Of a stretch of DNA of 64,000 nt, positions 25,300 through 49,263 are shown in pieces. The notes under the pieces were generated by a model, which was not told the origin of the DNA, ran no database searches, and saw only the letters and a list, made by a program, of their open reading frames with translations. The DNA comes from Patescibacteria group bacterium. GTDB taxonomy: Bacteria; Patescibacteriota; JABMPQ01; JAQVVF01. Position numbers and translations under genes: made by a program. The stretch's first letter is position 1, and each line of letters opens with the position of its first letter. Location of the stretch: NCBI GenBank assembly GCA_041662665.1, contig JBAZSC010000001.1:577511-641510 (forward strand), read 5' to 3'.

Positions 25300-27435
25300 T
25301 TAGAAGTTTGCTTCCAAAGAATCTTCTAAATAATTTCTAAAATCTTCGATAGCATCAACATCATAAACTCGTTCAGATAAATATAAATTATTTTTATCTT
25401 TTGCTTTATATAAACTCAATGATAGAAAATTATCAACAGAAGATAAAGCTGGCACATTATACATTTTATCAGCAACTTTTTTATCTTTTGTATCGCTATT
25501 TTTAAAATATTTTATAGATAGCGTACTAGAACTTAATGTTTTATAGTTCAAATAATTTTTCTTTAATAATTCCAAATTATCAACTCTATACGGATAAACA
25601 ATTAGTTCATCTTTTGCCACAAGAAGATAAACATGATCATAATCCATTACTATTTTATTTAAAGTTTCAAATGATTTTTCATCCAAAAAAGTTTTTAATT
25701 TGATAATAACGTCATCATTATCTAAATCATTTTCAAATTTATTTGCTTCAACTAAAAATTCTTTTTTAGAAAATAATTCTCTTCGAGGAACTGCATTAAC
25801 ATTATATAAATAATGTAAAACGTAAGACCATTTTTGCCAAGCCCATCCAGGATTCATTACGACTAAATCGTCAGTTTTAAAATTTTGGCTAATTTTTTGC
25901 AACTCCTTATCCATTCCATAATTTTCTCTATAGAAAACAATTGGCAAAGATATCAAAAAATTTCCAACAATTAAAACTATGATTGCTTTCTTAACAAAGC
26001 TTGTTAAATTTGAATTTAAATTGCTTAATCTAAACCATACAAAAGAAACAAGAATAAAGATGAAAGGCAAGAATATCGGATAAAATCTCCTCATAAACCA
26101 AGGCTGATCAATTGCAATTTGTGCTCGAAATAAAAATAATAATGAAGGCAGACATAATATAACTAAAATAAATTCTTCTTTTTTAAAGACTTTTTTGTAA
26201 AGTCCAATCAAGACGATAACAAAATAAAACAAAATTAAGTAAAAACCTAATGCTTTAAAATTGAATTGTATTTGATAAAATGACCAAGCCAGATTTGAAC
26301 CTTTTAAAAATAAAACAATTTCGTATAAACAAGCACCTAAAATGATTATACTGAAAATAATTCTTTGACCATTATTCATTAAATAATCAATTGTCTTTTT
26401 GCTAAAACCAAAAGCATATTTTCGAAGAAGATAATATACGATTAAGCATAATGCCAAAATCAAAAGCAAAACTAAAAAGACTTTAGAAAACAATTTCCAT
26501 GGATCGTAAAATTGTTTATAAAAATAAGCTAAGCCATTATATTTCTGCAGATACGCACCAAAAAATACTAAAGAAGCAACAGTTATGCCTGCACAAATAA
26601 GAGAATTCCATCCTAATTCGATTTTTTCGCCAAAATAACTAACTCTTAATTTCTTAATAGCCAAAATAATTAATAAAATTGCGATTGCAACAGCAAAATA
26701 CAGTAATGCCTCAGCACGAATAAAGATACAGAATAATAATGAATATAAACCAAAAAACAAACTAGATATTTTTTTGTTCTTCAAGCCTTCCATAAATAAT
26801 AAAATTCCAAGCCAGAAAAAAACCATAAACAAATTTTCTGAATTCAATCTCTTCGTAAACCAGAAAGTAGTATAAAAAGTACTAAGCAACAACAACGAAA
26901 ATAAAGCAGCCTTTCTGTTTGCCAAATCAGAAACAAGACAATAAATCAAACTTAAAAACAAAATCATTAATAAGCAATTCGCCCAAAGCATTGCATTTAT
27001 TCCGCCAAAAAGAAAATAAACAGCTAAATAAACAATATAGCCAGGCAAAAATTGAGATGTAAAAACATTTCCTTCTAAATTTCTAAAACCTGAATAAGCA
27101 TGAGTCAACTGATCATTAAAAGATAATGAACTAGTTTTAGTCAGCATAATCGCTGCTGACATATAACTCGCATCATCTCTGCCAGAAGGAATTCCATGAT
27201 GAAAAAAAGAAACAATTAAAGAAAAAACAATGATTGCTCCAAAAACAATCAGATCTTTTCTCTCAAGCTTAATTTTTTGTTTTCTCAGAAAAATCCAAGC
27301 TAGAAAACCTATACCAAATAAAATTAAAGATATAATTACGCTAATTTTATTAAACCAGCCAAAAACAGCCAAACCTAGCAAAAAAGTTAGACAAAAAGCA
27401 AAAAATAAAGTAAAATATTTTAAACAGTTAAACAT
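25300..27435 (-). CDS. GT-C family membrane glycosyltransferase (PMT/ArnT-like, PMT_2-type)
   Basis: A 711 aa polytopic protein. The first loop has HGIPSGRDDASY, a DD/DE motif typical of the ArnT/PMT fold. Confidence 0.6.
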   Translation of the reverse strand: MFNCLKYFTLFFAFCLTFLLGLAVFGWFNKISVIISLILFGIGFLAWIFLRKQKIKLERKDLIVFGAIIVFSLIVSFFHHGIPSGRDDASYMSAAIMLTKTSSLSFNDQLTHAYSGFRNLEGNVFTSQFLPGYIVYLAVYFLFGGINAMLWANCLLMILFLSLIYCLVSDLANRKAALFSLLLLSTFYTTFWFTKRLNSENLFMVFFWLGILLFMEGLKNKKISSLFFGLYSLLFCIFIRAEALLYFAVAIAILLIILAIKKLRVSYFGEKIELGWNSLICAGITVASLVFFGAYLQKYNGLAYFYKQFYDPWKLFSKVFLVLLLILALCLIVYYLLRKYAFGFSKKTIDYLMNNGQRIIFSIIILGACLYEIVLFLKGSNLAWSFYQIQFNFKALGFYLILFYFVIVLIGLYKKVFKKEEFILVILCLPSLLFLFRAQIAIDQPWFMRRFYPIFLPFIFILVSFVWFRLSNLNSNLTSFVKKAIIVLIVGNFLISLPIVFYRENYGMDKELQKISQNFKTDDLVVMNPGWAWQKWSYVLHYLYNVNAVPRRELFSKKEFLVEANKFENDLDNDDVIIKLKTFLDEKSFETLNKIVMDYDHVYLLVAKDELIVYPYRVDNLELLKKNYLNYKTLSSSTLSIKYFKNSDTKDKKVADKMYNVPALSSVDNFLSLSLYKAKDKNNLYLSERVYDVDAIEDFRNYLEDSLEANF

Positions 27436-27446
27436 ATTAAAATTTA

Positions 27447-27489
27447 TTCAGCGCAATATCAGCGTTAGCAATCAGCGTCAAATCAGCTT
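27447..27489 (+). repeat. 4 x ATCAGCGT element in a divergent promoter region (periods 11-13-11, terminal atcagcttctaca)
   Basis: ttcagcgcaat atcagcgttagca atcagcgtcaa atcagcttctaca. Confidence 0.85.
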
Positions 27490-27512
27490 CTACAAAAGAT
27501 TATAACATAAAA

Positions 27513-28463
27513 ATGAAAAATCAGGAAGTTAACAACTGGCCAAAAGTAACAATCGTTTTTCCTAATTGGAATGGCAAAAATGATACTTTAGAATGCTTGA
27601 AATCATTAGCTAAGCTTAATTATCAAAAAAATAATTTAGAAATAATTATTGCCGACAATGGTTCAAACGATGGCTCTCAAAAAGCAATCAAGCAGGAATT
27701 ATCAAAAATGACTGGTTACGCAAACTTGAAATTAATAGAAATTGGCCAAAATATTGGCGCTCCAGCTGCTCTGAATCTAGCAATCAAATCTGCAAAACAA
27801 AATTATGATTTTATCTGGAAATTAGATAATGATGTTGTAGTTGATCAAAATTCATTATTATGTTTAGTCAAAGAAGCAATAAAAGAAAAAAATATTGGCA
27901 TGGTTGCGGGCACAAATTACTATTATGATCAACAAACAACTATTTGGGCAATTGGTGGAAAAGTTAATTTAACATTTGGATTAAGCCGTAATATTGGTAA
28001 AAACAAACAAGACCAAGATCAATTTAAAAAAGATTCTACTTTTGATTATTTGCCAGGATGTGCCTTATTAGTAAAAAAAGAAGTAATTCAAAAAATTGGC
28101 TTGCTAGATGAAAAATATTTTGTATATTATGATGAAACAGATTGGAATATCAGAGCAAAACAAGCTGGCTTTGATTTAGTCTACATTCCAGAAGCAAAAA
28201 TCTGGCACAAAGCATCAAGATCAACACAAGAAGGAAGCATTTTTAAAAACTATTACTTAACCAGAAATAAGCTATTATTTATCAAAAAATTTAATAATAA
28301 AAAGCTAAATATAGTTTTACCGATTGCCGCGATCTGCTTAGTTGACCTTCCATTCCGCTGGATTTTTAGAAGCAAAATAAAAGATCTGCCGAATATTTTA
28401 AAAGGTGCGACTTGGGGAATAATCGATGCCTTAAGTAAATATCCTAAAATAAGAAAGTTCTAG
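27513..28463 (+). CDS. GT2 glycosyltransferase
   Basis: Carries VTIVFPNWNGKNDTLECLKSL...IIADNGSNDGS. Confidence 0.85.
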   Translation: MKNQEVNNWPKVTIVFPNWNGKNDTLECLKSLAKLNYQKNNLEIIIADNGSNDGSQKAIKQELSKMTGYANLKLIEIGQNIGAPAALNLAIKSAKQNYDFIWKLDNDVVVDQNSLLCLVKEAIKEKNIGMVAGTNYYYDQQTTIWAIGGKVNLTFGLSRNIGKNKQDQDQFKKDSTFDYLPGCALLVKKEVIQKIGLLDEKYFVYYDETDWNIRAKQAGFDLVYIPEAKIWHKASRSTQEGSIFKNYYLTRNKLLFIKKFNNKKLNIVLPIAAICLVDLPFRWIFRSKIKDLPNILKGATWGIIDALSKYPKIRKF

Positions 28464-28530
28464 AGTTTAGAAATTTAAGCATTAAAAATTTAATAGAAAT
28501 TAGAAATTGAAAATTAGAAATTCGCTATAT
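28464..28530 (+). repeat. tandem TWGAAAT heptamer array
   Basis: tagagtt tagaaat ... tagaaat tgaaaat tagaaat. Confidence 0.6.
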
Positions 28531-29592
28531 ATGCTAAAATTTTTCTTCAAATATTTAATTAAAGATAAAATCAGACTAACAACTTTCAACAAATTAGTTA
28601 TTTTAAAATTGTTAAAACATTCCCTCAAAAAATCAGAAATGCCAGAATCATATCTCTATGAATATAATGCCAAAACAATTCAAAAGACACTTGACTTCAT
28701 GCACAAAAAACAAGATACAATTGATTCAATGTGGTTGCAAAGAGGCTTAATCTGCGAAAATAAAAATTTTAAAGACACATCAAAAATCGCCAATGGTTCA
28801 ACAACCACACTCAAACAAACTAATGGCAAAAATTATTTAACTGATGAAGATTTGAGTTTTATCGAAAAAAATGATCCAGAAAAAGCAAAGATAATTAGAG
28901 AAACACACCTGCAAATGGAGGATTTCTATAAAAAAGCACTGTGCAATAAAAACTTGATTTATCATCCTGAAGAATTAGCAAAAATAGGCCAAATCTTAAA
29001 TCAAGGCTTAGCTTTTAAAAAAGATTTTACTTTTCATCGTGGAGAAATTAATAATTCCTTAAAATTATATTTCAATCGAATAGGGGAGTTCAAAAAAATA
29101 GATAAAACTGGAATTTTTGTTTTTGATGAAAAAATTGATTTATTAGTAAAAGGTTCGGAATTTATTTTTAATTTAAAAACTGCCAAAGCAATCGAGAAAA
29201 AAACTGGAGGAAAATTTTATGCTTTAAATCCTTTTGCCAAAAAATATATTGCTCCAAATGTTATCAGAGTTTTAAATACTGGAGTTTATGATTTGCCACA
29301 TCTTGGCCATGCTTCAAAAATAAAGAATCTAAAACAAGCAATTGCAAAAAATGGCAAATTAATCATTGGTTTAACCAGCAATAAAAATGTCCGAGGCATA
29401 AAAAACAAACAAGTTGTATTTTTAGCAAAAGACCGTAAAACAATGCTTGAATCATTAAAATATCCAGATAAGATAATTCTTGAACCAGGCAATAGCAAAA
29501 TCTTCAAAGAATTCTATAATTACGCTCAATTACCTTTTTATACAAAAACAATTTATAATTTTAAATCCATATTTAACAGAACGAACAATTGA
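28531..29592 (+). CDS. two-domain protein: N-terminal domain of unknown function plus a C-terminal HxGH cytidylyltransferase-like domain (TagD/RfaE-dII-like)
   Basis: GVYDLPHLGHAS is the HxGH nucleotidyltransferase motif. Start trimmed to the ATG at 28531; the track start is a TTG inside the repeat array. Confidence 0.6.
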   Translation: MLKFFFKYLIKDKIRLTTFNKLVILKLLKHSLKKSEMPESYLYEYNAKTIQKTLDFMHKKQDTIDSMWLQRGLICENKNFKDTSKIANGSTTTLKQTNGKNYLTDEDLSFIEKNDPEKAKIIRETHLQMEDFYKKALCNKNLIYHPEELAKIGQILNQGLAFKKDFTFHRGEINNSLKLYFNRIGEFKKIDKTGIFVFDEKIDLLVKGSEFIFNLKTAKAIEKKTGGKFYALNPFAKKYIAPNVIRVLNTGVYDLPHLGHASKIKNLKQAIAKNGKLIIGLTSNKNVRGIKNKQVVFLAKDRKTMLESLKYPDKIILEPGNSKIFKEFYNYAQLPFYTKTIYNFKSIFNRTNN

Positions 29593-29650: not shown

Positions 29651-30445
29651 ATGCCCACATTAACAGAATTAAAAAGAATCTGCCGTAAAAAAAATTACCA
29701 TAACTATTGGTCAAAGATTTTTTCTCGCCATATTTCCATTTATTTCACTTGGTTTTTTTGTCATACACCAATTACTCCAAATCAATTAACTTTTATTCAA
29801 ATAATTTTAGCTTGGCTAGCAGGATTATCATTAATTATCTGGCAATGGAACGGAATTATCGCCTGGATAATTTTAATGCAATTATCATTTATCTTTGATC
29901 TAGTTGATGGAGAAGTTGCGAGATATAAGAAAAAATCATCTTTATTTGGTGTAATCTTAGATTCATTTGGCCATGTCTTAATTAATCCAGCAGTATATTG
30001 GAGTCTTGCAATTTTTGTCTATTATCAAACATTTGATGTCTGGATAATCTACTTAACAATTATTTTATCAATCTTTTTAATTTCTCCATCAAAACACGCT
30101 TTAATGCGCGGAATTTTATTTTTAACAACCAAAAAAGACAATCCAATCTATAATTACGAAAATCTAAGCAAGCAGTTTAAACAAGAATATCTTCCTCCAA
30201 AACAAAGGAATAGCTCTCTAAAACAAGTTGAAAAAATATTGAAAACAATCTCCGAATTTCCAAATGACATGAATATTTTCTGCATTTTATTAATCTTAAC
30301 TCTAATTTTTCATAATACATTATTCACAACAATTGGCTTGGTTTTCTTTTCTGGATTAATAATCATAAAAGAATTTTACTTTTTATATCAAATCAAAAAG
30401 AAGAATTTAATTGAAAAAGAATACCTCAAGATTTATCAAAAATAA
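29651..30445 (+). CDS. CDP-alcohol phosphatidyltransferase family membrane protein
   Basis: DLVDGEVARYKKKSSLFGVILDSFGH matches DG-x2-AR-x8-G-x3-D. Confidence 0.7.
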   Translation: MPTLTELKRICRKKNYHNYWSKIFSRHISIYFTWFFCHTPITPNQLTFIQIILAWLAGLSLIIWQWNGIIAWIILMQLSFIFDLVDGEVARYKKKSSLFGVILDSFGHVLINPAVYWSLAIFVYYQTFDVWIIYLTIILSIFLISPSKHALMRGILFLTTKKDNPIYNYENLSKQFKQEYLPPKQRNSSLKQVEKILKTISEFPNDMNIFCILLILTLIFHNTLFTTIGLVFFSGLIIIKEFYFLYQIKKKNLIEKEYLKIYQK

Positions 30446-30975: not shown

Positions 30976-31007
30976 CTTTATAAACTTTATAACTTTAAGA
31001 ACTTTAT
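30974..31007 (+). repeat. 4 x AACTTTAT element (periods 9-8-9)
   Basis: gactttat aa aactttat aactttaa g aactttat. Confidence 0.8.
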
Positions 31008-32575
31008 AGACTGTTAGTCATCACATTTTTAACAACATTAACTGGAATATTTACAAAATCCTTATAAATTTCACTTGCCGGCTTCCCATCCATGTATTCC
31101 GGTACTTGCAACCCCATATAATTCAAAACAGTTGGCGTAATATCCAAAATACTGATTGGTTTAATTTCCTTGCCAGCCAAGATATTTGGACCTAAAGACA
31201 TAAATATTCCATCTTGATCATGATATGAATTTGTATGCGATGTCGTTTCCACAAAAAGTTTATCATCAAATCTTGCAACAGCCAATCTTTTTTCACCATT
31301 AACTTTAAAAATAATGTCTGGCGCTTCAGCAACATAATTTCCATGATATTGCTCTTCACATGACATTACTTCTGTAAAAACTTTATCGCCATTTGGATCA
31401 GTAACCAACTTTAATTTTTCAATAATTTCTGATCTTAATTTTTTATATTCTTCTTTACTGACAGTTCCATTATTCTCTCGACCTATCAAATTAATATTTA
31501 CGCCCCAAGTTGATTTTGCGCCTAATTGAGCATAAGCAGTTGTATTTTTCCAATCAATCGTCTTTGTTGATTGCGGAATATTTTCTCTTATAATATTTTT
31601 AATTGATCTTGGAACAATATTCCTAAATTTATCAATAAACTTATTTTTAAATAATTTCTGTCTATCAAATTTAATTAAGTGAAAAAATCTGCGAAGTAGG
31701 GAAGTATTGCCTTGTTTTTCATGAACTTGTCTCCAGCCTTTTGCAACAACATCATTAATTTCTGATTTTTTGTATTGCATATAACCATTCTGATTCAACC
31801 AAGCCATGATATTAAATGTTTGATCATAATCATTAAAGCCATGATCAGACATAACAAATAATCCAGTTTCATTATCCATTAATTTCAAAATCTTGCCCAT
31901 CAAATCATCAAGAGTTTTATAAGTCCTAATAACCTTGTCTTCTTCATGCCAAAAATCATGCCCACAAATATCTGAACAACGAAACACAATCATAGAAAAA
32001 TCCCATTTTTCAGAAGTATAATATTTTTTCCAAATTTCATATCTTGCTTTATCAACTGAAACCATTGCATCAAATCTTTCTTCTCCGCCTTTATGTCGTA
32101 AATTTAATTCCATTGAATCAATAACATAATTTTGTTTTCGAAGCTCTTGTTCAAAAGACAATGGTTCAGCATATCTCTGAGTTGACAAAGATAATAGTCC
32201 GCCAACTAATTTGCCATTAATGCTTTCTGGAGGATAAGTCATTGGCACATTCCAAACCAAGCATCTCTTGCCATTTTCTGACAATATTTTCCATAATGAT
32301 TTAACTTTTACATCAGAAAAAGTATGAATTTTTCGATCTTCAATATTGAATTTATGCGTTGATAAAAAATGAAAGATTCCATGTTTGCCAGGATTCACGC
32401 CAGTATAAAAAGAAGGCCAAGCTGGCACAGTCAAAAAAGGAATTGTACTTTTCAAAATTCCATGACTTCCTTTTTCTAAAATATGTTTGAATGTTGGCAA
32501 TAAACCTTGATCACTATATTTTTTTATAGCTCTAAAAGTTCCGCCATCTAAACCCACGATTAACGCTTTTTTCAT
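31004..32575 (-). CDS. alkaline-phosphatase-superfamily type I phosphodiesterase/nucleotide pyrophosphatase-like enzyme
   Basis: The N-terminus is ALIVGLDGGTF...VPAWPSFYTG, and it carries SDHG. Confidence 0.7.
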   Translation of the reverse strand: MKKALIVGLDGGTFRAIKKYSDQGLLPTFKHILEKGSHGILKSTIPFLTVPAWPSFYTGVNPGKHGIFHFLSTHKFNIEDRKIHTFSDVKVKSLWKILSENGKRCLVWNVPMTYPPESINGKLVGGLLSLSTQRYAEPLSFEQELRKQNYVIDSMELNLRHKGGEERFDAMVSVDKARYEIWKKYYTSEKWDFSMIVFRCSDICGHDFWHEEDKVIRTYKTLDDLMGKILKLMDNETGLFVMSDHGFNDYDQTFNIMAWLNQNGYMQYKKSEINDVVAKGWRQVHEKQGNTSLLRRFFHLIKFDRQKLFKNKFIDKFRNIVPRSIKNIIRENIPQSTKTIDWKNTTAYAQLGAKSTWGVNINLIGRENNGTVSKEEYKKLRSEIIEKLKLVTDPNGDKVFTEVMSCEEQYHGNYVAEAPDIIFKVNGEKRLAVARFDDKLFVETTSHTNSYHDQDGIFMSLGPNILAGKEIKPISILDITPTVLNYMGLQVPEYMDGKPASEIYKDFVNIPVNVVKNVMTNSL

Positions 32576-32599: not shown

Positions 32600-32716
32600 T
32601 AATTTAGTCATAATATAATACGAATTTACGAATTATGCAAATGTTGCGAATATACAAATACGACGATTTGCATATTTGTATCATTTGCATTTATTTGTAT
32701 ATTCGTATTATATTTT
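32600..32716 (+). repeat. palindromic region built from ATTYGYAT-type 8-mers; the 3' 28-mer is identical to the pyrG leader
   Basis: atgcaaatgttgcgaatatacaaatacgacgatttgcatatttgtatcatttgcatttatttgtatattcgtattatattttca. Confidence 0.7.
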
Positions 32717-33818
32717 CAAACAAAGACAAATACTTTCCACAAATTCTATCCCAACTATATTGTTTAGAATTATATTCAAATGAATTTCTGGCAAACAATC
32801 TCGCATAATCTGGATCATTCAAAAATTTATTTATGTTCTTTATGAATGATTTCGAATTCAGAGATTCAACTAAAACACCATTTTTTTTATTTTTAATTGC
32901 ATCTTTGATGCCTTCAATATCAGAAGCCAAAACAGGTAAACCCCAATTTGAAGCTTCAATTGCCACAATTCCAAAACCTTCCAAATCATTCTTAATTTTT
33001 ATATTTGGCATTACAAAGACATCAGATGCATAACAAACTCTTTTTAATTCTATTTCAGAAAGTCTGCCTAATAAAAAAACTCTATTTTCCAATTTCTGTT
33101 TTGAAATAATACTTTTGATTCTTGAAGCATCATTTCCAGATCCAACGATAAGATAATCAATACTTTCATCTAAATTTGGCATTACATTTTTCACAAACCA
33201 AGCCACGCCTTTTCTCTTTATTAATCTTCCGACAGTTATCAAAACTTTTCTTTTTTTCATCTGCTTTTTACAATATTTAAACAGATATTTTTTATAACTT
33301 GATTTAACTTTTAAATAAGACAATCTAGATTTATGCAAAGAACTCAAAACATCATTTTTATAAAAATCAACGCCATTTGGAATAAACAAGCACTTTTCTT
33401 TTGGAACATTTCTTTTCACACATTCATCAATTGTTGAATTTGAAACACAAATAACTTTATCCAAATGTTTTAATTGTCTGACAATAACAAATTGATACAA
33501 AGGATTTGAATAAGTCACATCCAATCCATGAGCAGTTATCAAAACAGGTTTCTTTGTTAAAAATTTCAAAATAGAACCTGCCATTGCCATAAAAGAATCG
33601 CAGAAATAAATCAAATCGCAATCGCGCGACATAAAAAAACCTTTGATTATAGAATAGGGAATAAACCAAACTAAATGCCATTGCGATCTTTTTAAAGCAA
33701 TCAATCTTTTTTGACAATCAATATTCTCAATCAAACCCTTGCTATATTTTTCCATTCCACCAATTTGCGGTGGATATTTTCTAGTTATAAATAATACTTT
33801 CATAAATTTTAAAAGCAC
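32691..33818 (-). CDS. GT4 glycosyltransferase
   Basis: Carries EGFGIVAIEASNWGLPVLASDIEGIKD. The C-terminal NIIRIYK is encoded by the shared 28-mer. Confidence 0.8.
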   Translation of the reverse strand: MLLKFMKVLFITRKYPPQIGGMEKYSKGLIENIDCQKRLIALKRSQWHLVWFIPYSIIKGFFMSRDCDLIYFCDSFMAMAGSILKFLTKKPVLITAHGLDVTYSNPLYQFVIVRQLKHLDKVICVSNSTIDECVKRNVPKEKCLFIPNGVDFYKNDVLSSLHKSRLSYLKVKSSYKKYLFKYCKKQMKKRKVLITVGRLIKRKGVAWFVKNVMPNLDESIDYLIVGSGNDASRIKSIISKQKLENRVFLLGRLSEIELKRVCYASDVFVMPNIKIKNDLEGFGIVAIEASNWGLPVLASDIEGIKDAIKNKKNGVLVESLNSKSFIKNINKFLNDPDYARLFARNSFEYNSKQYSWDRICGKYLSLFENIIRIYK

Positions 33819-33866: not shown

Positions 33867-34811
33867 CTATTTCCGAAATTCCATCCTTTTTATTTTATAC
33901 AATATTTCCTCCAATAATTTTCTATTCCATCCAATTGCAGATCCTAACAGCCCAATCACTAACACTTGAAAACCAATCATCATCAAAGCACCAGCCAAAA
34001 TCAAAGATTGAATATGGCCAGTTCCATTGCCAATAAGATAATAATATAAAAACCTAATAACAAATAATAAGCCAGCACCAAATAGAATAGAGCCCATTAT
34101 ACTCATTACTCGCAATGGTTTATAAATCGTAAAAGTTCTTGTTATAACCATCAAAGATTTTACAATGTGAGACGGAATGCTTTTGATCAATCTTGATTTT
34201 CTATTCACTTTCCTTGCACGAATTGGAACTTCAGCAATCAACATATCATGATCAAGAGCTTGAATTACTGATTCATGAGTATAAGTATGTTTTGATAAAA
34301 TATTTATTTTCATTGCCGCTTCTTTTGTATAAGCTCGAAATCCAGAAGAAACATCATATTTTCTTGGCAAATCAACAACTTTATATACAATATAATTTCC
34401 AAACATGTTTCCATATTTATTGAATTTCGGCATAAAATCCAAATCTCGCACACATCTATTTGCAATCACAATGTCAGCCTTATTTTTCAAAATTGGAGCA
34501 ATCAAATCAGGAATTCTTGTCTGATCATAGTGATTATCAGCATCAGTATTTACAATAATATCAGCCCCAAACCATAATGCAGCAGTTACCGCATCTTTGA
34601 AAGTAATTGCCAATCCTTTATTTTTTTTATGTGAAATAACATAATCAGCGCCAGCTTCTTTTGCGATGCTTGCTGTATTATCAATTGACCCATCATCCAA
34701 AACTAGCACTTCTACTTTTTTAATACCAAAAATCTGCCTAGGAATTTCTCTAATCACTTCAGCAATATTCGCTTCTTCGTTAAATGCCGGTATTGTAATA
34801 ATTAATTTCAT
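33867..34811 (-). CDS. GT2 polyprenyl-phosphate sugar synthase (Dpm1/GtrB-like) with a C-terminal TM anchor
   Basis: Carries ITIPAFNEEANI...VLVLDDGSIDNT and two C-terminal TM helices. Confidence 0.75.
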   Translation of the reverse strand: MKLIITIPAFNEEANIAEVIREIPRQIFGIKKVEVLVLDDGSIDNTASIAKEAGADYVISHKKNKGLAITFKDAVTAALWFGADIIVNTDADNHYDQTRIPDLIAPILKNKADIVIANRCVRDLDFMPKFNKYGNMFGNYIVYKVVDLPRKYDVSSGFRAYTKEAAMKINILSKHTYTHESVIQALDHDMLIAEVPIRARKVNRKSRLIKSIPSHIVKSLMVITRTFTIYKPLRVMSIMGSILFGAGLLFVIRFLYYYLIGNGTGHIQSLILAGALMMIGFQVLVIGLLGSAIGWNRKLLEEILYKIKRMEFRK

Positions 34812-34816
34812 AGTAG

Positions 34817-34935: not shown

Positions 34936-34980
34936 TATTTAATTGTTCCTTACCACCCACGAAGAGGAGGAAAGAAAAAG

Positions 34981-36352: not shown

Positions 36353-36392
36353 TTCTGCGTTTTTCTGCGTTCACTTCTGCGTATTTCTGCGT
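36353..36392 (+). repeat. 4 x TTCTGCGT element (periods 10-12-10) overlapping the flippase 3' end
   Basis: ttctgcgt tt ttctgcgt tcac ttctgcgt at ttctgcgt; it encodes the flippase C-terminal NQRRNTQK. Confidence 0.85.
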
Positions 36393-37837
36393 TGATTTAA
36401 TAATAATTTAATCTGTCCAATTTCACCTTGTCTAAAAAATCTCGTTGCAAAAAGTAGAATAAAAAATAATATTAACAAACATAAATTCAAAAGTATGGAT
36501 GTATAAAAAGAATAATTATTAAACAAATAGCTTAATGCCAAAAGACCGCCAGAAATTAAAACTAATTTGATAATTCTCATCCATTCATATACAACTTTAT
36601 AATAAAAATTAGAAACAAAATAAGTTAAGACAACCATCAAAACAAAACAAACAAAAGTTGACCAGGCAGCAGCCATCATTCCATATTTTGGAATAAATAT
36701 TATGTTCAAAATAATATTTAAGATTGCAGGAATTCCAACTAATAGGGGATAATATTTTGTTTTTTCTTCTAAATGCAAACCCGGCACAATCACAAAATGC
36801 ATGCCGTACAAAACATAAGAAAAAGCAATCAATGGAATTATTTTATAAGCATCAAAATATTCTGGTGATGAAACAACTTCCACAATTTGTTTTGCAAAAA
36901 TAGAAATTGTCAAAGCAATAAAAGAAGAAACAAGCAACCAATATGTCAAAGTTCGCGCATAAATTTGTTTTGTGTCATTTCTTTTTGCAACTGAAAAAGA
37001 AATCGTAGGCCAAGCAAGTTGAAAAGGAGTTACGAGTAAAATTGAAACTATAAATCCAATTTTATAACCAAGAGAATACAAACCAACCTCTGTCAAAGAA
37101 TCATAAACTTTCAAAAAATATCTATCAGACAAATCCATTACCCACATTGCCAGAGATGCTGGAATAATTGGAATTCCAAAAGCAAATAATTTTCTCAACA
37201 AATCTTTTGAAAAACTTAATTTAAGATAAGGAATTAAATTAAAAAGGAAAGGCACGCTGATAAATACTTGAGCAATAAAATTACCAAGCATTATGCCAAA
37301 CACACCCATTTTTGCAAACGCTACAAAATAAATATTTAGTCCCAAAACTAAACCAAACTTTAATAACGAAAAAATAATATATTTTACAGATTTTTCTTCG
37401 GCGCGAAAAACAGAAAAAGCAAGTGCCAAAAATACTGCAAACAAATTTGTAATCAATAATAAATTTACTAAATTTGCATATTGTGTTCCACCCAAAAATG
37501 TGTTTGCAATAAAATCTCTAAATAACCACAAAACCAAAGTGGATAAAATAGCAAGCGGAATTATAAACAAAAATGCAGTGCCAACCAATTGTTTCTGTTC
37601 AACGTCAGTCTTGCAATCTCTTTCATAACATTTAAAAATTGCCGAAGCAAAACCAAAAGACAAAAGCATTGATAAAATCAAAATCAAAGTATTCAAAATT
37701 TCCAACTGGCCATAATCAGCAGGTGATAAATACCTCGTGTACATTGGAATCAAAATAAACCCAACAATACTTTGCGCTAATGATCCAATAGCATAAACAA
37801 AAGAATGTTTAAATAATCTCCTAAATTGATCTAGCAT
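36371..37837 (-). CDS. Wzx/MOP-superfamily flippase
   Basis: A 488 aa polytopic membrane protein of the polysaccharide biosynthesis protein type. Confidence 0.7.
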   Translation of the reverse strand: MLDQFRRLFKHSFVYAIGSLAQSIVGFILIPMYTRYLSPADYGQLEILNTLILILSMLLSFGFASAIFKCYERDCKTDVEQKQLVGTAFLFIIPLAILSTLVLWLFRDFIANTFLGGTQYANLVNLLLITNLFAVFLALAFSVFRAEEKSVKYIIFSLLKFGLVLGLNIYFVAFAKMGVFGIMLGNFIAQVFISVPFLFNLIPYLKLSFSKDLLRKLFAFGIPIIPASLAMWVMDLSDRYFLKVYDSLTEVGLYSLGYKIGFIVSILLVTPFQLAWPTISFSVAKRNDTKQIYARTLTYWLLVSSFIALTISIFAKQIVEVVSSPEYFDAYKIIPLIAFSYVLYGMHFVIVPGLHLEEKTKYYPLLVGIPAILNIILNIIFIPKYGMMAAAWSTFVCFVLMVVLTYFVSNFYYKVVYEWMRIIKLVLISGGLLALSYLFNNYSFYTSILLNLCLLILFFILLFATRFFRQGEIGQIKLLLNQRRNTQK

Positions 37838-42137: not shown

Positions 42138-42138
42138 G

Positions 42139-42186
42139 AATTCGAAAAGTAATTCGCAATATTCGAAAATTTATTTGAGTAATATT
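42139..42186 (+). repeat. 4 x ATTCGAAA-family element (intergenic copy)
   Basis: gaattcgaaaagta attcgcaatat tcgaaaattta tttgagtaatatt. Confidence 0.8.
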
Positions 42187-43513: not shown

Positions 43514-45475
43514 ATGAAACATTTCAAAAAATATTTATTCCCAATTCTTATAATCGCAATAGCGTTTCTTTTTTATTTTCCTTCTCTTAATGACAATTTT
43601 TTGTCAGACGATTATGATCATTTAATGTTTGCCAGATCGGTTGATAATGTAAAAATGATTCCGGGCATCTTCAAGATTCCAGGCGATATGTATCGACCAG
43701 TCATGAATTTATCAATTGTCATTGATTATTTAATTTATCATTACCATCCAACAGGCTTCCATTTTACAAGTTTATTATTATTTATTTTGTCTGCACTCTT
43801 AATTTATGCAATTGTCAAAAAGATTTCTAAAAATAGCTTAATGTCTTTTTTTGCTAGCTTAATTTTTATTGTCATTCCAAATCATTTCGAAACAACAATT
43901 TGGATCGCTGGCCGAACAGATTTGCTTGCTTGTTTTTTCTATTTATTAACAATTTATTTATTTATCCAATTTATTTTTAAAGAAAAATATTCTTGGCTCA
44001 TTTTATCTTATTTAGCTGCCATTCCCACATTTTTCAGTAAAGAAATTTCCATGACCTTGCCATTCACAATTGCCTTAATCTATTTAGTCTACTTAAGAAA
44101 AGAATCAAAGTTTAGCTTCAAAAAAATATTCTTGCTTTGGCTACCTTATATTGCACTTCTCATCATTTACTTAGTAATTCGTAAACAAATCGTCGGCAGT
44201 TGGATCGGAGGCTACAGATTATTTGGCGAAGTGTCTTCAACGTCTTTCTCTCCAAAAGCAATTTTATTGCCATTTTATTTTGTAAAATATCTATTTAATT
44301 TTGATTACCTTGCATCTTTTATTCCCAAATTTGCTACCAATTTTTCTGCTAATTTAGTTGCCATTTCAGGAATTGCAATTTTTTCAATTACAGCATTTTT
44401 ATTAAATTTAAAAAATCTCAAAAATCTAAAATTTTGGAAAAATATTGTCTTTTTAATTTTCATTACATATTTCGTCTCCATTCCAAATTTTTCAATTCTG
44501 CCTTCTTTGAAATTAAATTTAATGAATACTAGAGTCTTGTACATCGCCTCAATTCCAATTGCCATTTTAATCTCATATTTAATTTTTTCTACCCTCCCCA
44601 TGGGAGGGGTGGGCAAAAAGCTAAGAATAATTTTTGCATCTTTGATTTGCATTATCTTTAGCATCGGATTTTTCTTTAATTACATGCCTTGGCACAAGGC
44701 CCAAGCTAAATCAAAAATAATTCTAGATAGTATACAACAATTGCATCCAGAATTTTCCCAAATAGTTTATGCAACTTATGACAAAGAATTATTTTTCAAA
44801 AATTTGCCAGACAATATTTATGGCGCCTTTGTTTATCGCAATGGATTTCCAGAAGCTTTAAGAATTAAATTTAATAATAAAAAGATTTTCGTAAATCCAA
44901 AAGAAAAAATTGTTTGGGTTGTTAAAAATAATAAGGATGCCATTACATCTTTATGTAATTTCAAAAAAAATCCGCAGACAACTGGAATTCAAGTTTTTAA
45001 TTGGAATGACCTAGATGAAGTAAACAGATTTATTGAACAGCCAAGCATCGCCGAAAAACAAGAAAATAAAAAAATACTTAAACAACAATATTCTCAGCAA
45101 ATTCAAGAGTTTAATCAACAATTAAACAATTTAGCGCTTGAGCAATTTAACAATATAAATTCAAGTGGAAAAACAACAGCATTAAAAAGTCCTGAATTAA
45201 ATTTTCCTCCACAAATTATTGATGAATTAAGTTTTAAAATGACAGCGCAACAAAATTCTATCGCTGACTTTTTATGGCGTACAAAAAATTCAAAATTTAA
45301 CGACTTAAATAATAATATTTTACTGCCAATTAAAGCAGGGGATAATGAATACAAAATTGATTTAACAAAATGCCCAGCCTGGTTTACATCAACAACAAAT
45401 GATATCAACCAATTTGAATTAATTCCAACTGAAAAAAGACAGAAAATTAAAATAGATAATATAGAAATAAAATAA
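43514..45475 (+). CDS. GT-C family membrane glycosyltransferase (PMT/ArnT-like) carrying an in-frame REP-like insertion
   Basis: A polytopic protein with the first-loop motif FLSDDYDHLMFARS. The GC-rich palindrome at 44587..44613 encodes STLPMGGVGKK. Confidence 0.6.
   Translation: MKHFKKYLFPILIIAIAFLFYFPSLNDNFLSDDYDHLMFARSVDNVKMIPGIFKIPGDMYRPVMNLSIVIDYLIYHYHPTGFHFTSLLLFILSALLIYAIVKKISKNSLMSFFASLIFIVIPNHFETTIWIAGRTDLLACFFYLLTIYLFIQFIFKEKYSWLILSYLAAIPTFFSKEISMTLPFTIALIYLVYLRKESKFSFKKIFLLWLPYIALLIIYLVIRKQIVGSWIGGYRLFGEVSSTSFSPKAILLPFYFVKYLFNFDYLASFIPKFATNFSANLVAISGIAIFSITAFLLNLKNLKNLKFWKNIVFLIFITYFVSIPNFSILPSLKLNLMNTRVLYIASIPIAILISYLIFSTLPMGGVGKKLRIIFASLICIIFSIGFFFNYMPWHKAQAKSKIILDSIQQLHPEFSQIVYATYDKELFFKNLPDNIYGAFVYRNGFPEALRIKFNNKKIFVNPKEKIVWVVKNNKDAITSLCNFKKNPQTTGIQVFNWNDLDEVNRFIEQPSIAEKQENKKILKQQYSQQIQEFNQQLNNLALEQFNNINSSGKTTALKSPELNFPPQIIDELSFKMTAQQNSIADFLWRTKNSKFNDLNNNILLPIKAGDNEYKIDLTKCPAWFTSTTNDINQFELIPTEKRQKIKIDNIEIK
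44587..44613 (+). repeat. REP-like GC-rich palindrome (ccctccccatgggaggg), an in-frame copy
   Basis: ttctaccctccccatgggaggggtggg matches the hairpins flanking the RAYT gene. Confidence 0.75.
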
Positions 45476-45913: not shown

Positions 45914-46828
45914 ATGCTTCTCTCAATCATCATAGTCAACTGGAACACTAAAGAATTATTACGCAAATGCATTCAATCAATCATGTCAAACGCGCCTAGT
46001 TTTGATTATGAAATAATTGTCATCGACAATGCCTCAACTGATGGTTCAGCTGATATGCTAAAATATGAGCTTTCCAAAGATCAATATTTAGATCGTTTTG
46101 ATTCTGTTACCAATGCTCATGTCATTATCAATGAAAAAAACTTAGGCTTTGCAAAAGCAAACAATCAAGGAATAAAAAGAGCAAAAGGGGATTATATTTT
46201 ATTATTAAATCCAGATACCGAAGTCCAGCATAATTGTCTTCAAAGAACAGTTAATTTTTTGAATGAATTCAAAGAAGTTGGAATTTTAGGATGCAAACTT
46301 TTAAATCCAGACAGAACACTTCAACATTCAGTCAGAAAATTTCCAACTCTCATGTCTCAAGTTCTAATTCTCTTAAAACTTCATAATTTATTTCCAACCT
46401 TAAAGTCCTTACAAAATTACTTTCTTCCAAACTTTGATTACAATAAAAGCCAAGAAGTTGACCAAGTCATGGGCGCATATTTTTTAATTAACAGAAAAGT
46501 AATAGACAAAATTGGCATGCTGGATGAAAAATATTGGATCTGGTTTGAAGAAGTTGATTATTGCAAAATGGCCAAAAATGCTGGTTTTCAAGTTTATTAT
46601 TTCAAAGATGCAGAAACAATCCATCAAAAAGCCCAAGCTTTTAATCAAGTTTTAGGAATAAAAAAACAAGTTTATTTAAATAATTCACTTTTGCATTATT
46701 TCAATAAATTCCATTCACTATTTAGCGTTCTTGTAATTTTATTTTTATATCCAATAAGTTTATTTTTAGCCTTGATTGTTGATTTTGTAAAATTGTTTAT
46801 TCCCGTAAAGAAAAAAGAAAACCTTTAG
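45914..46828 (+). CDS. GT2 glycosyltransferase with a C-terminal TM segment
   Basis: Carries LSIIIVNWNTKELLRKCIQSI...IVIDNASTDGS. Confidence 0.85.
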   Translation: MLLSIIIVNWNTKELLRKCIQSIMSNAPSFDYEIIVIDNASTDGSADMLKYELSKDQYLDRFDSVTNAHVIINEKNLGFAKANNQGIKRAKGDYILLLNPDTEVQHNCLQRTVNFLNEFKEVGILGCKLLNPDRTLQHSVRKFPTLMSQVLILLKLHNLFPTLKSLQNYFLPNFDYNKSQEVDQVMGAYFLINRKVIDKIGMLDEKYWIWFEEVDYCKMAKNAGFQVYYFKDAETIHQKAQAFNQVLGIKKQVYLNNSLLHYFNKFHSLFSVLVILFLYPISLFLALIVDFVKLFIPVKKKENL

Positions 46829-46862
46829 CTTCTACCCTCCCCATGGGAGGGGTTTGTGAAAC
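46829..46862 (+). repeat. REP-like GC-rich hairpin (left flank of RAYT)
   Basis: cttctaccctccccatgggaggggtttgtgaaac contains the 17-bp perfect palindrome ccctccccatgggaggg. Confidence 0.8.
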
Positions 46863-46881
46863 AAAAATAAAACAAAAATCA

Positions 46882-47496
46882 ATGCAACAACCCCTTCCAC
46901 AAAAACAAAAAATATTTTGGCAAGATAATTCTTTTTATTTTTTAACAACCTCAACATTTCTGCATTATCCATATTTTAAAGTGCCTGAACAAAAACAAAT
47001 TGTTTTAAATAAATTCAAGCAAATCAAAGAGATTTTAAAAGTTCCTTTTCAATCACACAGCATTGCAATCAACCATTTTCATATTATGTTTTATTTAAAA
47101 TCCGGAAAAACAATGGCTCAACTAAAAAATATGTTGCACAGTGGAATATCAAGAGAATACAAAAAATTTTATCAAATCAAATGCAAAAATTTCTGGCAAA
47201 CAACAAAAATATTTTTTATTAAGGATGAAAAAATGTACTGGCAAATTATTGGATACATCAATGGCAATCTACTAAAACATCGAGAAGTTAGCAGATTTGA
47301 AGACTTAAAAGAGAATCCTTTTTCAAGCTACAAATATTATGCAGAAAAATATGGCGATGAAACAATGCAAGGATTAATTCGAAATGTTATAAATCTTGAC
47401 GAAGACAATGAAGGAACGCTTGATCTTAAACAGCTTAAATCATTAAAAACAAAGAATTTACCTCAAACCACGCAACCCTTGGCATGGCCAAGGTAG
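46882..47496 (+). mobile_element. REP-associated tyrosine transposase (RAYT, IS200/IS605 TnpA-like Y1 HUH transposase)
   Basis: Has the HUH motif HFHIM followed by MAQLKNMLHSGIS, comparable to IS200 HxHhh...KGxSS. The N-terminal YFLTTST resembles the RAYT YHVTxR block. A candidate catalytic Tyr lies in MYWQIIGYINGN. GC-rich REP-like hairpins flank it on both sides. Start trimmed to the ATG at 46882. Confidence 0.6.
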
Positions 47497-47498
47497 AA

Positions 47499-47533
47499 GT
47501 TCTACCCTGCCCACGGCAGGGGTTCGTAAAACA
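47499..47533 (+). repeat. REP-like GC-rich hairpin (right flank of RAYT)
   Basis: gttctaccctgcccacggcaggggttcgtaaaac has a 7-bp stem ccctgcc/ggcaggg and the same flanks as the left copy. Confidence 0.8.
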
Positions 47534-47541
47534 AGCAAAAA

Positions 47542-49263
47542 TCATTCAATCATTATCTTCTTAAACTCAACTGAACCCTTTTTACTTCCTACAAAATCCA
47601 ATCTAATAATCTGCACCAAATCATTTTTTCTTAAATCAAAATCAAATTCATAAGCATGAAATTTTCCATCTTTATGAATTTTTTTTATAACAGAATTACT
47701 AGACAAAAAATCCTTATCGCCAAGATATCTAAATTCAACTTTCAACTTTTTAAATTCAGTATTCTTTAATTTTAATTTTAAACATTTAACAACATTAGTA
47801 TCCAATCTCAAATTCGGATCACTTCTCAAAAATGCATCTTTCTTATTTATTTTTAAAACATAATTCTTATTTTTATTTTTCCATTTAGAATTTTTAGCAA
47901 TCCATTTTTTAGATATTAAATTATATTTTTCATCATTCGAAATTAATGGTTTATGTTCATTTGTCCAATCAATATGCAAAAAAGCATTCTTATTTAAAAA
48001 CGCTAGAATAATCAAAATCAAAACTGGCATAATAAATTTTAACTTGCCAGCAAAAATAATATTTATTGCCAAAACAAACATTAACATTGCAGAAAATAAT
48101 GCTGGCAAAAGATATCGTCCTTGTGGCTGATAATTATCTAAGCTGTAATAAAAAGTTGTCAAAAAAGCAACAATAAAAAACAAAAATATTATCAAAACAA
48201 TATTAAATTTATCTTTTTGCTTTTTCCAAATTAAAAATAAAGAAACAGGCAATAATATTGCAACTAAAATTAAAAAATATAAAAAATAATCATAATATTT
48301 TGGATCAAAACCGATATTAGCTTGTCCAAAAACACCTAAAAAATTCTTAAATAATTCATTTAGCCAAGTTACAAAATTATTAAAATTCCATAGATCTCGA
48401 TGCTGTCCTTCCCAAAATTTATTGGCAAATTTCAATCCAAAGATGTCACCAACAAAAATCAGATTTCTAAACATCCAAGCAAAGCAAACAATCAAAGCAG
48501 GCGATAAAGTAAATTTCAAATAATCTTTCCAATTGTTTCTATTTTTCCAAAATATAATTATTAAAAATAACATTGCAAATGGATACAACGTCAATTTTGT
48601 CAAAAACGCCAAACCAGCAATCACTCCACAAACGAATAAATCAAGATTAAAAAATCGTAATTCGCCAATTCGCATATTCGTATCATTTGCATAAATTCGT
48701 ATATTTGTATTATGCTTAACAACAAAATACAGCATCATCACACCCAGCAAATTAGCTAAAACATCATTATTAAGCACCCCAGAAATAAACAAAAACATTG
48801 GCCAAAAACAAAAAGCCAATGTCAAACTATAATAAATTATTCTTTCTTTGTCCGCCGTAGTCCCGCAGGCTTGTCTGCCGTAGCCGAAGCGAAGGCAGGA
48901 CGAAGGCGGATTAAACAATAACTTAGCGGTAAGAAAAGCAAAAATGACGGTTAAAACGCCAAGCAAGCTTGAAAAAAATCTTAAAATTTTTATTTCGGAA
49001 TCAATTAATATTTTATTTTTTAAGACAAGATCAATAGGCGATAAAAAAAGATAATATAATGGCGGTTGATGCGCTTCCCAAAAAGAAGTTTTATTTGTTA
49101 GAGCAGGAAAGTGATGATTATTATTTAAAAATCTGATATATTCAAAATGAGAGAACTCATCTGGTGCAGAAAACTTTTCTGTCTTAAAATTATATATATT
49201 TGCAACAATCAAAAATATCCCACACATCAGAATTAAGAAAATAGCATCAACTTTATTTTTCAT
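47542..49263 (-). CDS. GT-C family membrane glycosyltransferase (GT39 PMT-like, DE motif) carrying two in-frame repeat insertions
   Basis: The first loop has FSAPDEFSHFEYIRFL, resembling the PMT DEVHFG motif. The GC-rich insert at 48851..48910 encodes PSSCLRFGYGRQACGTTADKE. The AT-rich ATTYGYAT insert at 48655..48720 encodes NIRIYANDTNMRIGE. Confidence 0.6.
   Translation of the reverse strand: MKNKVDAIFLILMCGIFLIVANIYNFKTEKFSAPDEFSHFEYIRFLNNNHHFPALTNKTSFWEAHQPPLYYLFLSPIDLVLKNKILIDSEIKILRFFSSLLGVLTVIFAFLTAKLLFNPPSSCLRFGYGRQACGTTADKERIIYYSLTLAFCFWPMFLFISGVLNNDVLANLLGVMMLYFVVKHNTNIRIYANDTNMRIGELRFFNLDLFVCGVIAGLAFLTKLTLYPFAMLFLIIIFWKNRNNWKDYLKFTLSPALIVCFAWMFRNLIFVGDIFGLKFANKFWEGQHRDLWNFNNFVTWLNELFKNFLGVFGQANIGFDPKYYDYFLYFLILVAILLPVSLFLIWKKQKDKFNIVLIIFLFFIVAFLTTFYYSLDNYQPQGRYLLPALFSAMLMFVLAINIIFAGKLKFIMPVLILIILAFLNKNAFLHIDWTNEHKPLISNDEKYNLISKKWIAKNSKWKNKNKNYVLKINKKDAFLRSDPNLRLDTNVVKCLKLKLKNTEFKKLKVEFRYLGDKDFLSSNSVIKKIHKDGKFHAYEFDFDLRKNDLVQIIRLDFVGSKKGSVEFKKIMIE
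48851..48910 (+). repeat. GC-rich imperfect inverted repeat inserted in-frame in the GT-C gene
   Basis: tccgccgtagtcccgcaggc...gcaggacgaaggcgga; about 65% GC in a roughly 30% GC context. Confidence 0.7.

Follow-up and report, generated by a model that had tools for sequence, protein, structure and literature searches.

A 64,000-nucleotide stretch of a Patescibacteria contig (hereafter, the window) was found to encode five glycosyltransferases of the GT-C type (A, B, C, D, and D2) that have a homologous acidic loop, together with one polyprenyl-phosphate glycosyltransferase (G) that is predicted to make a lipid-phosphate-sugar donor. The genes of a Wzx flippase, G, a GT4 glycosyltransferase, and A form an operon module, Wzx-G-GT4-A, that is distributed across the Patescibacteria (candidate phyla radiation, CPR); no description of this CPR operon was found in the literature. 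We give about an even chance to the reading that the window is a CPR cell-surface glycan biosynthesis island, with envelope glycopolymers or lipoglycans (wall polysaccharide, teichoic-like polymer, or membrane-anchored glycan), and not specifically proteins, as the most likely acceptors of the GT-C enzymes. A previous interpretation made from the DNA alone (the sequence-only reading) had proposed a protein O-glycosylation toolkit composed of three PMT/ArnT-like enzymes (A, B, and C) and a Dpm1-like synthase (G).

The GT-C enzymes have a homologous acidic loop

The open reading frames (ORFs) named in the sequence-only reading were all present at the positions and on the strands given there, and the acidic motifs it had pointed out in A (RDDASY), B (SDDYDHL), and C (APDEFSHF) were likewise in place and of the GT-C first-loop type. 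In B (S31-D32-D33-Y-D-H-L) and C (A33-P34-D35-E36-F-S-H-F) the motif directly follows the first transmembrane (TM) helix, and in A (R86-D87-D88-A-S-Y) it comes after the third, which is itself preceded by a positively charged loop (RKQKIKLERKD). Because the TM helix before the motif has positive charges at its cytoplasmic side, all three motifs are predicted by the positive-inside rule to face outward. Two GT-C genes had been overlooked: D, which has an acidic loop (G199-D200-D201..R204-H205) that is invariant in its family, and D2, with the motif LLGDDGIRH...LDPPVFH, which matched the D-family hidden Markov model (HMM) at an E-value of 3.2e-96 and had no Pfam match.

A, B, C, D, and D2 are GT-C enzymes of a superfamily with a homologous acidic loop. 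The acidic motifs are not chance dipeptides, since they are invariant in each family and fall in the same columns of profile-profile alignments. The first-loop acid corresponds to D87 in A, D32 in B, D35/E36 in C, and D200/D201 in D, and is aligned across the families. Invariant residues include R86/D87 in the A family (alignment of 21 sequences); D32, R61, P62, E126, W130, R134, D136, K176, and E177 in B (40 sequences); and P34/D35/E36/H39 in C (36 sequences). When the profiles were compared by hhalign, B was found to be related to C with a probability of 96.9% (E 1.8e-10, 318 columns) and to A with a probability of 90.4% (E 1.4e-6), the motifs being in the same columns in both comparisons. 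D was related to the C family at 95.8% (E 7.7e-9) and to the A family at 77.6%, and the comparison of A with C reached only 45.5% (E 2.2e-4).

The GT-C(A) fold was recognized in A and D from AlphaFold2 models and in B, C, and D2 from HMM and hhalign matches. The models had a predicted local distance difference test score (pLDDT) of 83.9 and a predicted template-modeling score (pTM) of 0.87 for A, and 74 and 0.77, respectively, for D. Foldseek searches of the PDB returned GT-C enzymes only among the top 33 matches of A (STT3, 1e-6; ArnT, 2.8e-4) and the top 27 of D (led by STT3, 8e-10, followed by DPY19 and AglB); for both A and D, the structures of STT3, AglB, ALG12, ArnT, and Aft ranked far above those of PMT. 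Single-sequence searches of the PDB with A, B, and C returned nothing relevant. The C-family profile was the sole family profile to match a GT-C enzyme among the PDB sequences (yeast Pmt1, 6p25, E 2e-7, over TM3-6 only); no GT-C match was obtained with the profiles of the A, B, and D families, the last of which found no STT3, AglB, or PglB at E up to 10.

The description of A, B, and C as PMT/ArnT-like is true at the superfamily level only: all belong to the GT-C superfamily and B scored 35.5 bits against PMT_2, over the gathering score of 26.1, but neither a GT39 PMT nor a GT83 ArnT could be demonstrated. A scored 20.8 bits against PMT_2, under the gathering score, and 19 of its 21 relatives matched this family (best E 3.7e-11); D had no PMT_2 match. 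C alone had no Pfam match (PMT_2, E 0.63; PF09913, none); its homologs carry PF09913 (DUF2142), PF13231 (PMT_2), and, in some distant members, PF02366 (PMT), and are named "DUF2142 domain-containing protein" by NCBI. With the E-value limit raised to 10, PF02366 was still matched by none of A, B, C, and D; PMT_4TMC and MIR (Pfam) were matched by none of the five GT-C proteins, and the NCBIfam model of ArnT matched none of them. There was no STT3 match in Pfam and the WWDYG motif is absent, only degenerate Trp motifs being present; the archaeo_STT3 model, for which the cutoff is 450 bits, reached just 20 bits with D (E 1.5e-4). Assignment to YfhO or another unrelated membrane family, which the sequence-only reading had named as the outcome that would contradict it, was not observed at E up to 10. 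The individual enzyme classes are known, and existing annotations list homologs of the GT-C proteins under GT39, DUF2142, or DUF6541.

The A family is found almost only in Patescibacteria, and its best-conserved external motifs are D443-QPWFMRR and PGW531xW533Q534. The B family comprises 40,190 cluster representatives (E ≤ 1e-3) and is very large. The C-terminal region of B is without conservation among homologs, and its matches to PPK2 (E 6e-4) and sulfotransferase (E 0.05) were judged to be spurious and due to its Q/N-rich segment (residues 509-592). The motifs of B resemble those of TMTC-type enzymes; as neither a DUF1736 nor a TPR match was found in B, this likeness was not counted as evidence.

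G is a predicted polyprenyl-phosphate glycosyltransferase

The sequence features of G place it among the polyprenyl-phosphate glycosyltransferases of the ArnC/DPMS/AglJ type, which bears out its earlier description as a Dpm1/GtrB-like GT2 protein with a membrane anchor. G matched Glycos_transf_2 of Pfam (76 bits) and has two C-terminal TM helices (residues 237-255 and 270-288). Residues 2-294 align to residues 9-296 of ArnC (9hwj, E 6.6e-11), which represents the full length, and the N-terminal catalytic domain aligns to Pyrococcus DPMS (5mlz). The best NCBIfam match was archaeal AglJ (120 bits against a cutoff of 325), with model positions 3-282 of 293 covered; a dolichyl-phosphate hexose transferase model and ArnC were matched more weakly. 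The other five GT2 proteins were rejected as polyprenyl-phosphate glycosyltransferases, as they have only zero or one C-terminal TM helix.

The Wzx-G-GT4-A module is conserved across the Patescibacteria

A pattern scan for the A family, with one genome per GTDB species, gave 38 species-level loci (numbered with the prefix L), nearly all labelled Patescibacteria and including Kerfeldbacteria and Doudnabacteria. In 26 of the 38 loci (26 of the 32 that have at least 4 kb of upstream DNA), A is preceded on its own strand by a G ortholog; these orthologs were matched by phmmer at E 1e-73 to 1e-201, and none has fewer than two C-terminal TM helices. Exactly one GT4 gene (0.9-1.2 kb) fills the gap between G and A in 12 loci. 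Wzx genes are located at most 10 kb from A in 28 of the 38 loci, directly before G in about nine, and also in L006. The usual order is Wzx-G-GT4-A, which is a CPR-wide operon module. Its compact form was observed in L006, where Wzx-GT2(314 aa)-GT4-A-DUF1616-Wzx form one same-strand run with stop/start overlaps, followed by a D-family gene. Because A is preceded by a G ortholog in 26 of 38 loci, the role of G as donor synthase for A, which had been put forward from the sequence alone, is well supported. A contig labelled "uncultured archaeon" (L044, CABMIB010000069.1) was also found to encode a member of the A family (31% identity), close to a DUF1616 gene and numerous GT2/GT4 genes, which points either to mis-binning of a CPR contig or to sharing between domains.

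The module is interrupted in the window and in the relatives with 75-76% identity (L001/L010 and L009): genes for a phosphodiesterase, a CDP-alcohol phosphotransferase, a cytidylyltransferase, and a GT2 protein are placed between GT4 and A, after which the order is A-H-D. The arrangement from CysD to the NHL gene is collinear in a 75%-identical genome. H had no Pfam or NCBIfam match, and its homologs are found near A in about 10 of the 38 loci. D-like genes stand beside A in 4 of the 38 loci, CDP-alcohol phosphotransferase genes in 6, and CysN/D genes in 6. The stand-alone DUF1616 protein of the window and the N-terminal module of D (22307-22900) have the motif LFIPGFVW...ADTNAD in common and are paralogs, and the stand-alone gene directly follows A in L006, L025, and L030; the DUF1616 module may serve GT-C enzymes as an accessory subunit or as a partner resembling a flippase. 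Between G and Wzx lies a 1.56-kb stretch (34812-36370; G+C slightly raised, 0.325) with three small ORFs (118, 135, and 140 aa) that are not paralogs of one another; the 75%-identical relative L001 has no such stretch there, and its Wzx-G gap is 150 bp.

Gene content of the glycan island

The sequences of C, A, and D equal those of the database entries P0001, P0121, and P0144, respectively, on a 645,164-bp contig of a metagenome-assembled Patescibacteria genome. The window has a G+C content of about 29%, and Pfam and NCBIfam scans revealed that nearly all genes from its start to about 57 kb are related to glycan synthesis, with housekeeping genes again past about 59 kb. This island was found to encode (i) eight GT4 and six GT2 proteins, that is, 14 GT-A/GT-B enzymes; (ii) the nucleotide-sugar enzymes GDP-mannose 4,6-dehydratase, an epimerase/reductase (GDP-fucose pathway), and UDP-galactopyranose mutase (Glf), together with one methyltransferase; (iii) CysD/CysN sulfate adenylyltransferase; (iv) three Wzx flippases and one Wzy_C protein, both of which had been recognized in the sequence-only reading, the latter as O-antigen-ligase-like; and (v) two alkaline-phosphatase-superfamily proteins, a cytidylyltransferase, a CDP-alcohol phosphotransferase, and secreted FG-GAP/metallophosphoesterase and NHL/TIG proteins. 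An Rfam search of the window returned no match. The features discussed here are listed in Table 1. At the right edge of the island, a DUF4012 membrane protein gene comes after two GT2 genes, and a gene for an S41 C-terminal processing protease is just downstream.

Searched with HMMs of the four families (A, B, C, and D), the window gave five GT-C(A) genes and no others, which makes six GT-C genes when the Wzy_C protein is counted, and together these span 2.7-53 kb; Wzy_C proteins are classed as GT-C(B) (PMC10920833). Since other A-bearing loci average little beyond A itself per 20 kb by the same HMMs, which would miss other PMT_2 families such as the extra PMT-type gene in each of L004 and L007, the density of five GT-C genes in 47 kb is high even for CPR. 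The exceptional density claimed previously is upheld to this extent; the arrangement is common to the window and its close relatives.

Table 1. Features of the window, in order of position
Feature	Position	Strand	Description
D2	2706..4265	+	GT-C enzyme, 519 aa; paralog of D core without DUF1616 module
Third Wzx flippase	10461..11903	-	Polysacc_synt 139.6 bits; in GT4-rich left part of island
Stand-alone DUF1616 protein	15057..15491	-	144 aa, four TM helices; DUF1616 62.9 bits
CysD	15642-16445		Sulfate trio
CysN	16541-17827		Sulfate trio
Short alkaline-phosphatase-superfamily protein	17944-18657		Sulfate trio
FG-GAP and metallophosphoesterase protein	18726-20495		Secreted
Second Wzx flippase	20796..22241	+	Polysacc_synt 77 bits; convergent with D
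D	22307..24409	-	GT-C enzyme, 700 aa; N-terminal four-TM DUF1616 module and DUF6541-type GT-C core (Pfam)
H	24653..25237	-	Single-pass membrane protein, 194 aa, between A and D
A	25300..27435	-	GT-C enzyme, 711 aa; PMT_2-clan family
GT2, rhamnosyltransferase-like	27513..28463	+	One C-terminal TM helix; divergent from A
Cytidylyltransferase-like protein	28507-29592	+	Pfam CTP_transf_like
CDP-alcohol phosphotransferase	29651-30445	+	Pfam CDP-OH_P_transf; with the cytidylyltransferase, phospho-alcohol transfer branch
Phosphodiest protein	31004..32575	-	Cytoplasmic alkaline-phosphatase superfamily; 129.7 bits; downstream of GT4
GT4	32691..33818	-	Glycos_transf_1 116 bits; conserved middle gene of G-GT4-A
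G	33867..34811	-	GT2 polyprenyl-phosphate glycosyltransferase; predicted lipid-phosphate-sugar donor maker
Wzx (MOP) flippase	36371..37837	-	Pfam Polysacc_synt, Polysacc_synt_3, MatE; same operon as G
Metallophosphoesterase and FG-GAP protein	37888-39849	+	Secreted; Pfam, signal-peptide-like N-terminus
NHL propeller and TIG protein	39858-42137	+	Secreted; Pfam, signal-peptide-like N-terminus; upstream of GT4-B-GT2
GT4	42091-43392	+	Followed by B and GT2 on the same strand
B	43514..45475	+	GT-C enzyme, 653 aa; PMT_2 domain and ~250-aa extracytoplasmic C-terminal domain
GT2	45914-46828	+	Follows B
Transposase-like protein	46843-47496		217 aa; between B cluster and C
C	47542..49263	-	GT-C enzyme, 573 aa; DUF2142/PMT_2 type
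Signal-peptide protein	49314-50501		395 aa; no family match; divergent from C
Wzy_C protein	51452..53056	+	PF04932 55.9 bits against gathering score 31.7, residues 311-458
DUF4012 membrane protein	55571-57520		Right island edge

The Wzx protein encoded in the operon of G is a candidate flippase for the lipid-linked sugar, and the GT4 protein of this operon had no equivalog-level NCBIfam match. The second Wzx gene keeps its place beside the D/A genes in L001, L009, L010, and L016. The Wzy_C protein would be of the O-antigen ligase, polymerase, or PglL type and would use a lipid-PP (pyrophosphate)-linked oligosaccharide; neither a PDB sequence match nor a PglL-specific family match was found for it.

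Next to A, homologs of the divergent rhamnosyltransferase-like GT2 gene were found in L003, L004, L005, L014, L032, and L037. The CTP_transf_like domain of the cytidylyltransferase-like protein occupies residues 255-327 of 361 aa, and its N-terminal 250 residues are without family match; the best NCBIfam matches of this protein and the adjoining CDP-alcohol phosphotransferase were archaetidylinositol-phosphate synthase and IPCT-DIPPS, both weak. Near A, CDP-alcohol phosphotransferase and nucleotidyltransferase genes are accompanied by glycerol-3-phosphate dehydrogenase in L004 and by an iron-containing alcohol dehydrogenase, possibly glycerol-1-phosphate-dehydrogenase-like, in L006. The Phosphodiest gene is kept in L001, L005, L009, L010, and L016. 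The CysD-CysN-phosphatase trio recurs beside A/D genes in L009, L010, and L016, and L005 has ATP-sulfurylase, Phosphodiest, and adenosine phosphosulfate (APS) kinase genes in one run; in the window itself, an APS kinase gene was not found. As judged from these gene assignments, the trio suggests a sulfated glycan and a possible unrecognized sulfotransferase role of the Phosphodiest protein.

The GT4 protein adjoining B was closest in NCBIfam to the teichuronic-acid enzyme TuaH (113 bits). Its TTG-start ORF and the 3' end of the NHL/TIG gene have 47 nt in common (42091-42137), and the true start may be an internal ATG about 32 codons downstream. A tie between B and the NHL/TIG propeller was rejected, as the 38%-identical B homolog of L047 sits after beta-lactamase and EamA genes, the latter adjoining it. 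The two secreted FG-GAP and metallophosphoesterase proteins of the island have opposite domain order, and in about 6 of the 38 loci an FG-GAP protein gene is present in the vicinity of A. The gene between the B cluster and C encodes a REP-associated tyrosine transposase-like protein (NCBIfam E 3e-11, under the cutoff; weak IS200-like Y1_Tnp match). A conserved partner of C was likewise rejected: C homologs are solitary, with one coupled to a metallophosphoesterase gene, which in L007 overlaps the stop codon of the C homolog.

Proposed function and alternative interpretations

In the mechanism that we propose, G would load a sugar onto polyprenyl phosphate at the cytoplasmic face of the membrane, the MOP/Wzx flippase would turn the lipid-linked sugar outward in place of the usual small GtrA-type flippase, and A would pass the sugar to an extracytoplasmic acceptor via its outward R-D-D loop. 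B, C, D, and D2 probably work on the same or a similar lipid-phosphate-sugar pool with different acceptors, and the three Wzx flippases and the Wzy_C protein may handle lipid-PP-oligosaccharide units from the GT4/GT2 enzymes. We infer the flipping by Wzx, the shared use of the donor, and the class of acceptor. Polymers or lipoglycans are favored as acceptors because (i) the island consists mostly of polysaccharide-type biosynthesis genes; (ii) the phospho-alcohol branch and sulfate-activation genes recur near A; (iii) the GT4 protein adjoining B is closest to TuaH; and (iv) DUF2142 relatives are known as components of the rhamnose wall-polysaccharide loci of streptococci, near GT2 genes (PMC9746298). 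A number of findings weigh against this reading. No acceptor was identified by any test run, and only one polyprenyl-phosphate glycosyltransferase was found for five GT-C enzymes, with synteny tying only A to G. The conserved GT4 is without a role in the classical three-component scheme of synthase, small flippase, and GT-C enzyme, and by structure A and D are most similar to GT-C enzymes that modify proteins (STT3, AglB, and DPY19), though at TM-scores of only 0.4-0.5. In addition, none of the island enzymes could be identified at the equivalog level with NCBIfam, all matches being far under the cutoffs, and neither a WecA/WbaP-type initiating phosphoglycosyltransferase nor an LCP ligase was seen in the window.

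Protein O-glycosylation was not supported in the form first proposed, no proteins having been identified as acceptors, and we consider it unlikely. By this account G would provide polyprenyl-phosphate-hexose, from which A, B, and C would add sugar to Ser/Thr of secreted or surface proteins, the substrates being propeller/TIG proteins, pilins, or S-layer, with the Wzy_C protein as a possible PglL-type O-oligosaccharyltransferase. The homology of the loop-1 D-D/D-E motif to PMT-type enzymes and the match of the C-family profile to yeast Pmt1 are consistent with such a function, but the five GT-C proteins do not match PF02366, PMT_4TMC, or MIR, and PMT structures ranked 24th-30th or lower (E 0.03-0.4) in the Foldseek searches with D and A. 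Although the secreted NHL/TIG and FG-GAP genes are on the same strand and directly upstream of GT4-B-GT2, and FG-GAP proteins recur near A, the adjacency of B and the propeller gene is not conserved in the B homolog of L047, and the solitary position of the C homologs also argues against a toolkit. PglL-type O-oligosaccharyltransferases carry a Wzy_C domain too, yet the Wzy_C protein of the window lacks a match specific to that type. Within the CPR, glycosylation in Saccharibacteria has been called unexplored, and their pilins are predicted to be O-glycosylated (PMC11623550).

The five GT-C genes may also be functionally unrelated neighbors in an island made variable by gene flux, in which only G-GT4-A is a unit and B, C, D, and D2 each take part in other pathways, supplied with donors that are synthesized elsewhere, a possibility that we rate as quite improbable. 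The unrelated contexts of B and C homologs elsewhere, the scarcity of D-like genes next to A, the transposase-like gene between the B and C clusters, and the lack of the 1.56-kb stretch at the corresponding position in the 75%-identity relative would agree with gene flux. Its weight is reduced by the collinearity from CysD to NHL, by the presence of a single local polyprenyl-phosphate glycosyltransferase as donor supply, and by the occurrence of one catalytic loop type in all five enzymes. Slightly less probable again is an archaeal-style transfer of oligosaccharide en bloc, whereby an AglJ-like G would prime polyprenyl phosphate, GT4/GT2 enzymes would extend the glycan while it is bound to the lipid monophosphate, Wzx would flip it, and A and/or D would transfer it to protein or wall as a new CPR-specific class of STT3-fold oligosaccharyltransferase that lacks WWDYG. 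Such a pathway would account for the conserved GT4 between G and A, which is superfluous in a monosaccharide-donor system, and for the operon shared with Wzx, and it is in line with AglJ as the best full-length match of G, with the otherwise archaeal character of DUF1616 (Pfam description), with the weak archaeo_STT3 match of D, and with the top fold matches of D (STT3, 8e-10 to 3e-8, and AglB) and A (STT3, ALG12, and AglB). A conserved Trp motif is also present just after the beta-strand that opens the external domain (PGWxWQKW in A, SWGSY in D, and GWGDY in D2), at what would be the WWDYG position of PglB/Stt3. However, WWDYG itself and any STT3 match in Pfam are missing, the D-family profile found no oligosaccharyltransferase among the PDB sequences, the AglJ score was far under its cutoff, and at TM-scores of 0.4-0.5 ArnT, Aft, and ALG enzymes were nearly as good.

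Significance and relation to known systems

Patescibacteria live attached to the cells of other microbes, and their genomes are very small, yet about 57 kb of this 645-kb contig is spent on surface glycans. The conserved Wzx-G-GT4-A operon provides a defined four-gene target in many CPR lineages, and its study could show the nature of the CPR cell coat and how the cells are recognized by hosts and phages. If oligosaccharides were transferred en bloc, an unrecognized oligosaccharyltransferase system would extend across the Patescibacteria, possibly acting on pilins or S-layer proteins. We regard the result as useful rather than surprising, because it involves known classes of enzymes, homologs of which have annotations already.

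Among known glycosyltransferases, the GT39 enzymes (PMT/POMT and bacterial Pmt) resemble those of the window in their GT-C(A) fold and loop-1 acidic dyad, and in the match of the C profile to Pmt1, but differ in the Pfam domains noted above (PF02366, PMT_4TMC, and MIR) and in the low rank of PMT structures by fold. The GT66 enzymes STT3, AglB, and PglB have, like A and D, about 13 TM helices followed by a C-terminal mixed alpha/beta external domain, and the archaeal AglJ-primed GT66 pathway is similar in that G is closest to AglJ and STT3/AglB are the top Foldseek matches; unlike GT66, the window proteins lack WWDYG, an STT3 HMM match, and a profile match to oligosaccharyltransferase sequences. 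C shares its DUF2142 name with proteins of the streptococcal/lactococcal Rgp/CWPS type, and its homologs carry PF09913 as these do (PMC9746298 loci), but it is only a distant relative with no PF09913 match of its own, and CPR homologs of C are solitary.

In actinobacteria, one polyprenyl-phosphate-mannose synthase feeds several GT-C enzymes, and in a similar way to Ppm1 and its clients (Pmt, PimE, and MptA/B/C), one polyprenyl-phosphate-sugar synthase could serve several GT-C families in the window. The combination of CDP-alcohol phosphotransferase, GT4, and GT-C is likewise reminiscent of the PgsA1-PimA lipoglycan route. Unlike in these systems, equivalog-level matches and evidence of inositol or mannose are absent from the window, and its CDP-alcohol transferase is paired with a soluble cytidylyltransferase, which argues for a CDP-alcohol rather than a CDP-diacylglycerol substrate.

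The comparison extends to the three-component systems GtrA/GtrB/GtrC of O-antigen, CsbB/GtcA/YfhO of teichoic acids, and ArnC/ArnE-F/ArnT of lipid A. To our knowledge, CPR bacteria lack lipopolysaccharide. As in these systems, G, a GT2-type polyprenyl-phosphate glycosyltransferase that ends in two TM helices, is genetically linked to A, a GT-C enzyme with an outward acidic loop, and in L004 a GtrA_DPMS_TM and GT2 pair is located 8 kb upstream of the A homolog. The window differs in that (i) a Wzx/MOP flippase is in the operon, no small GtrA- or ArnE/F-type flippase having been found (GtrA had no Pfam match among the scanned window ORFs of at least 120-150 aa, shorter ORFs being outside the scan); (ii) a GT4 gene is conserved between the synthase and the GT-C enzyme; and (iii) the GT-C enzyme belongs to the PMT_2 clan and is not a YfhO or GtrC protein. 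With these differences, the system is a CPR variant of the known scheme of synthase, flippase, and GT-C enzyme.

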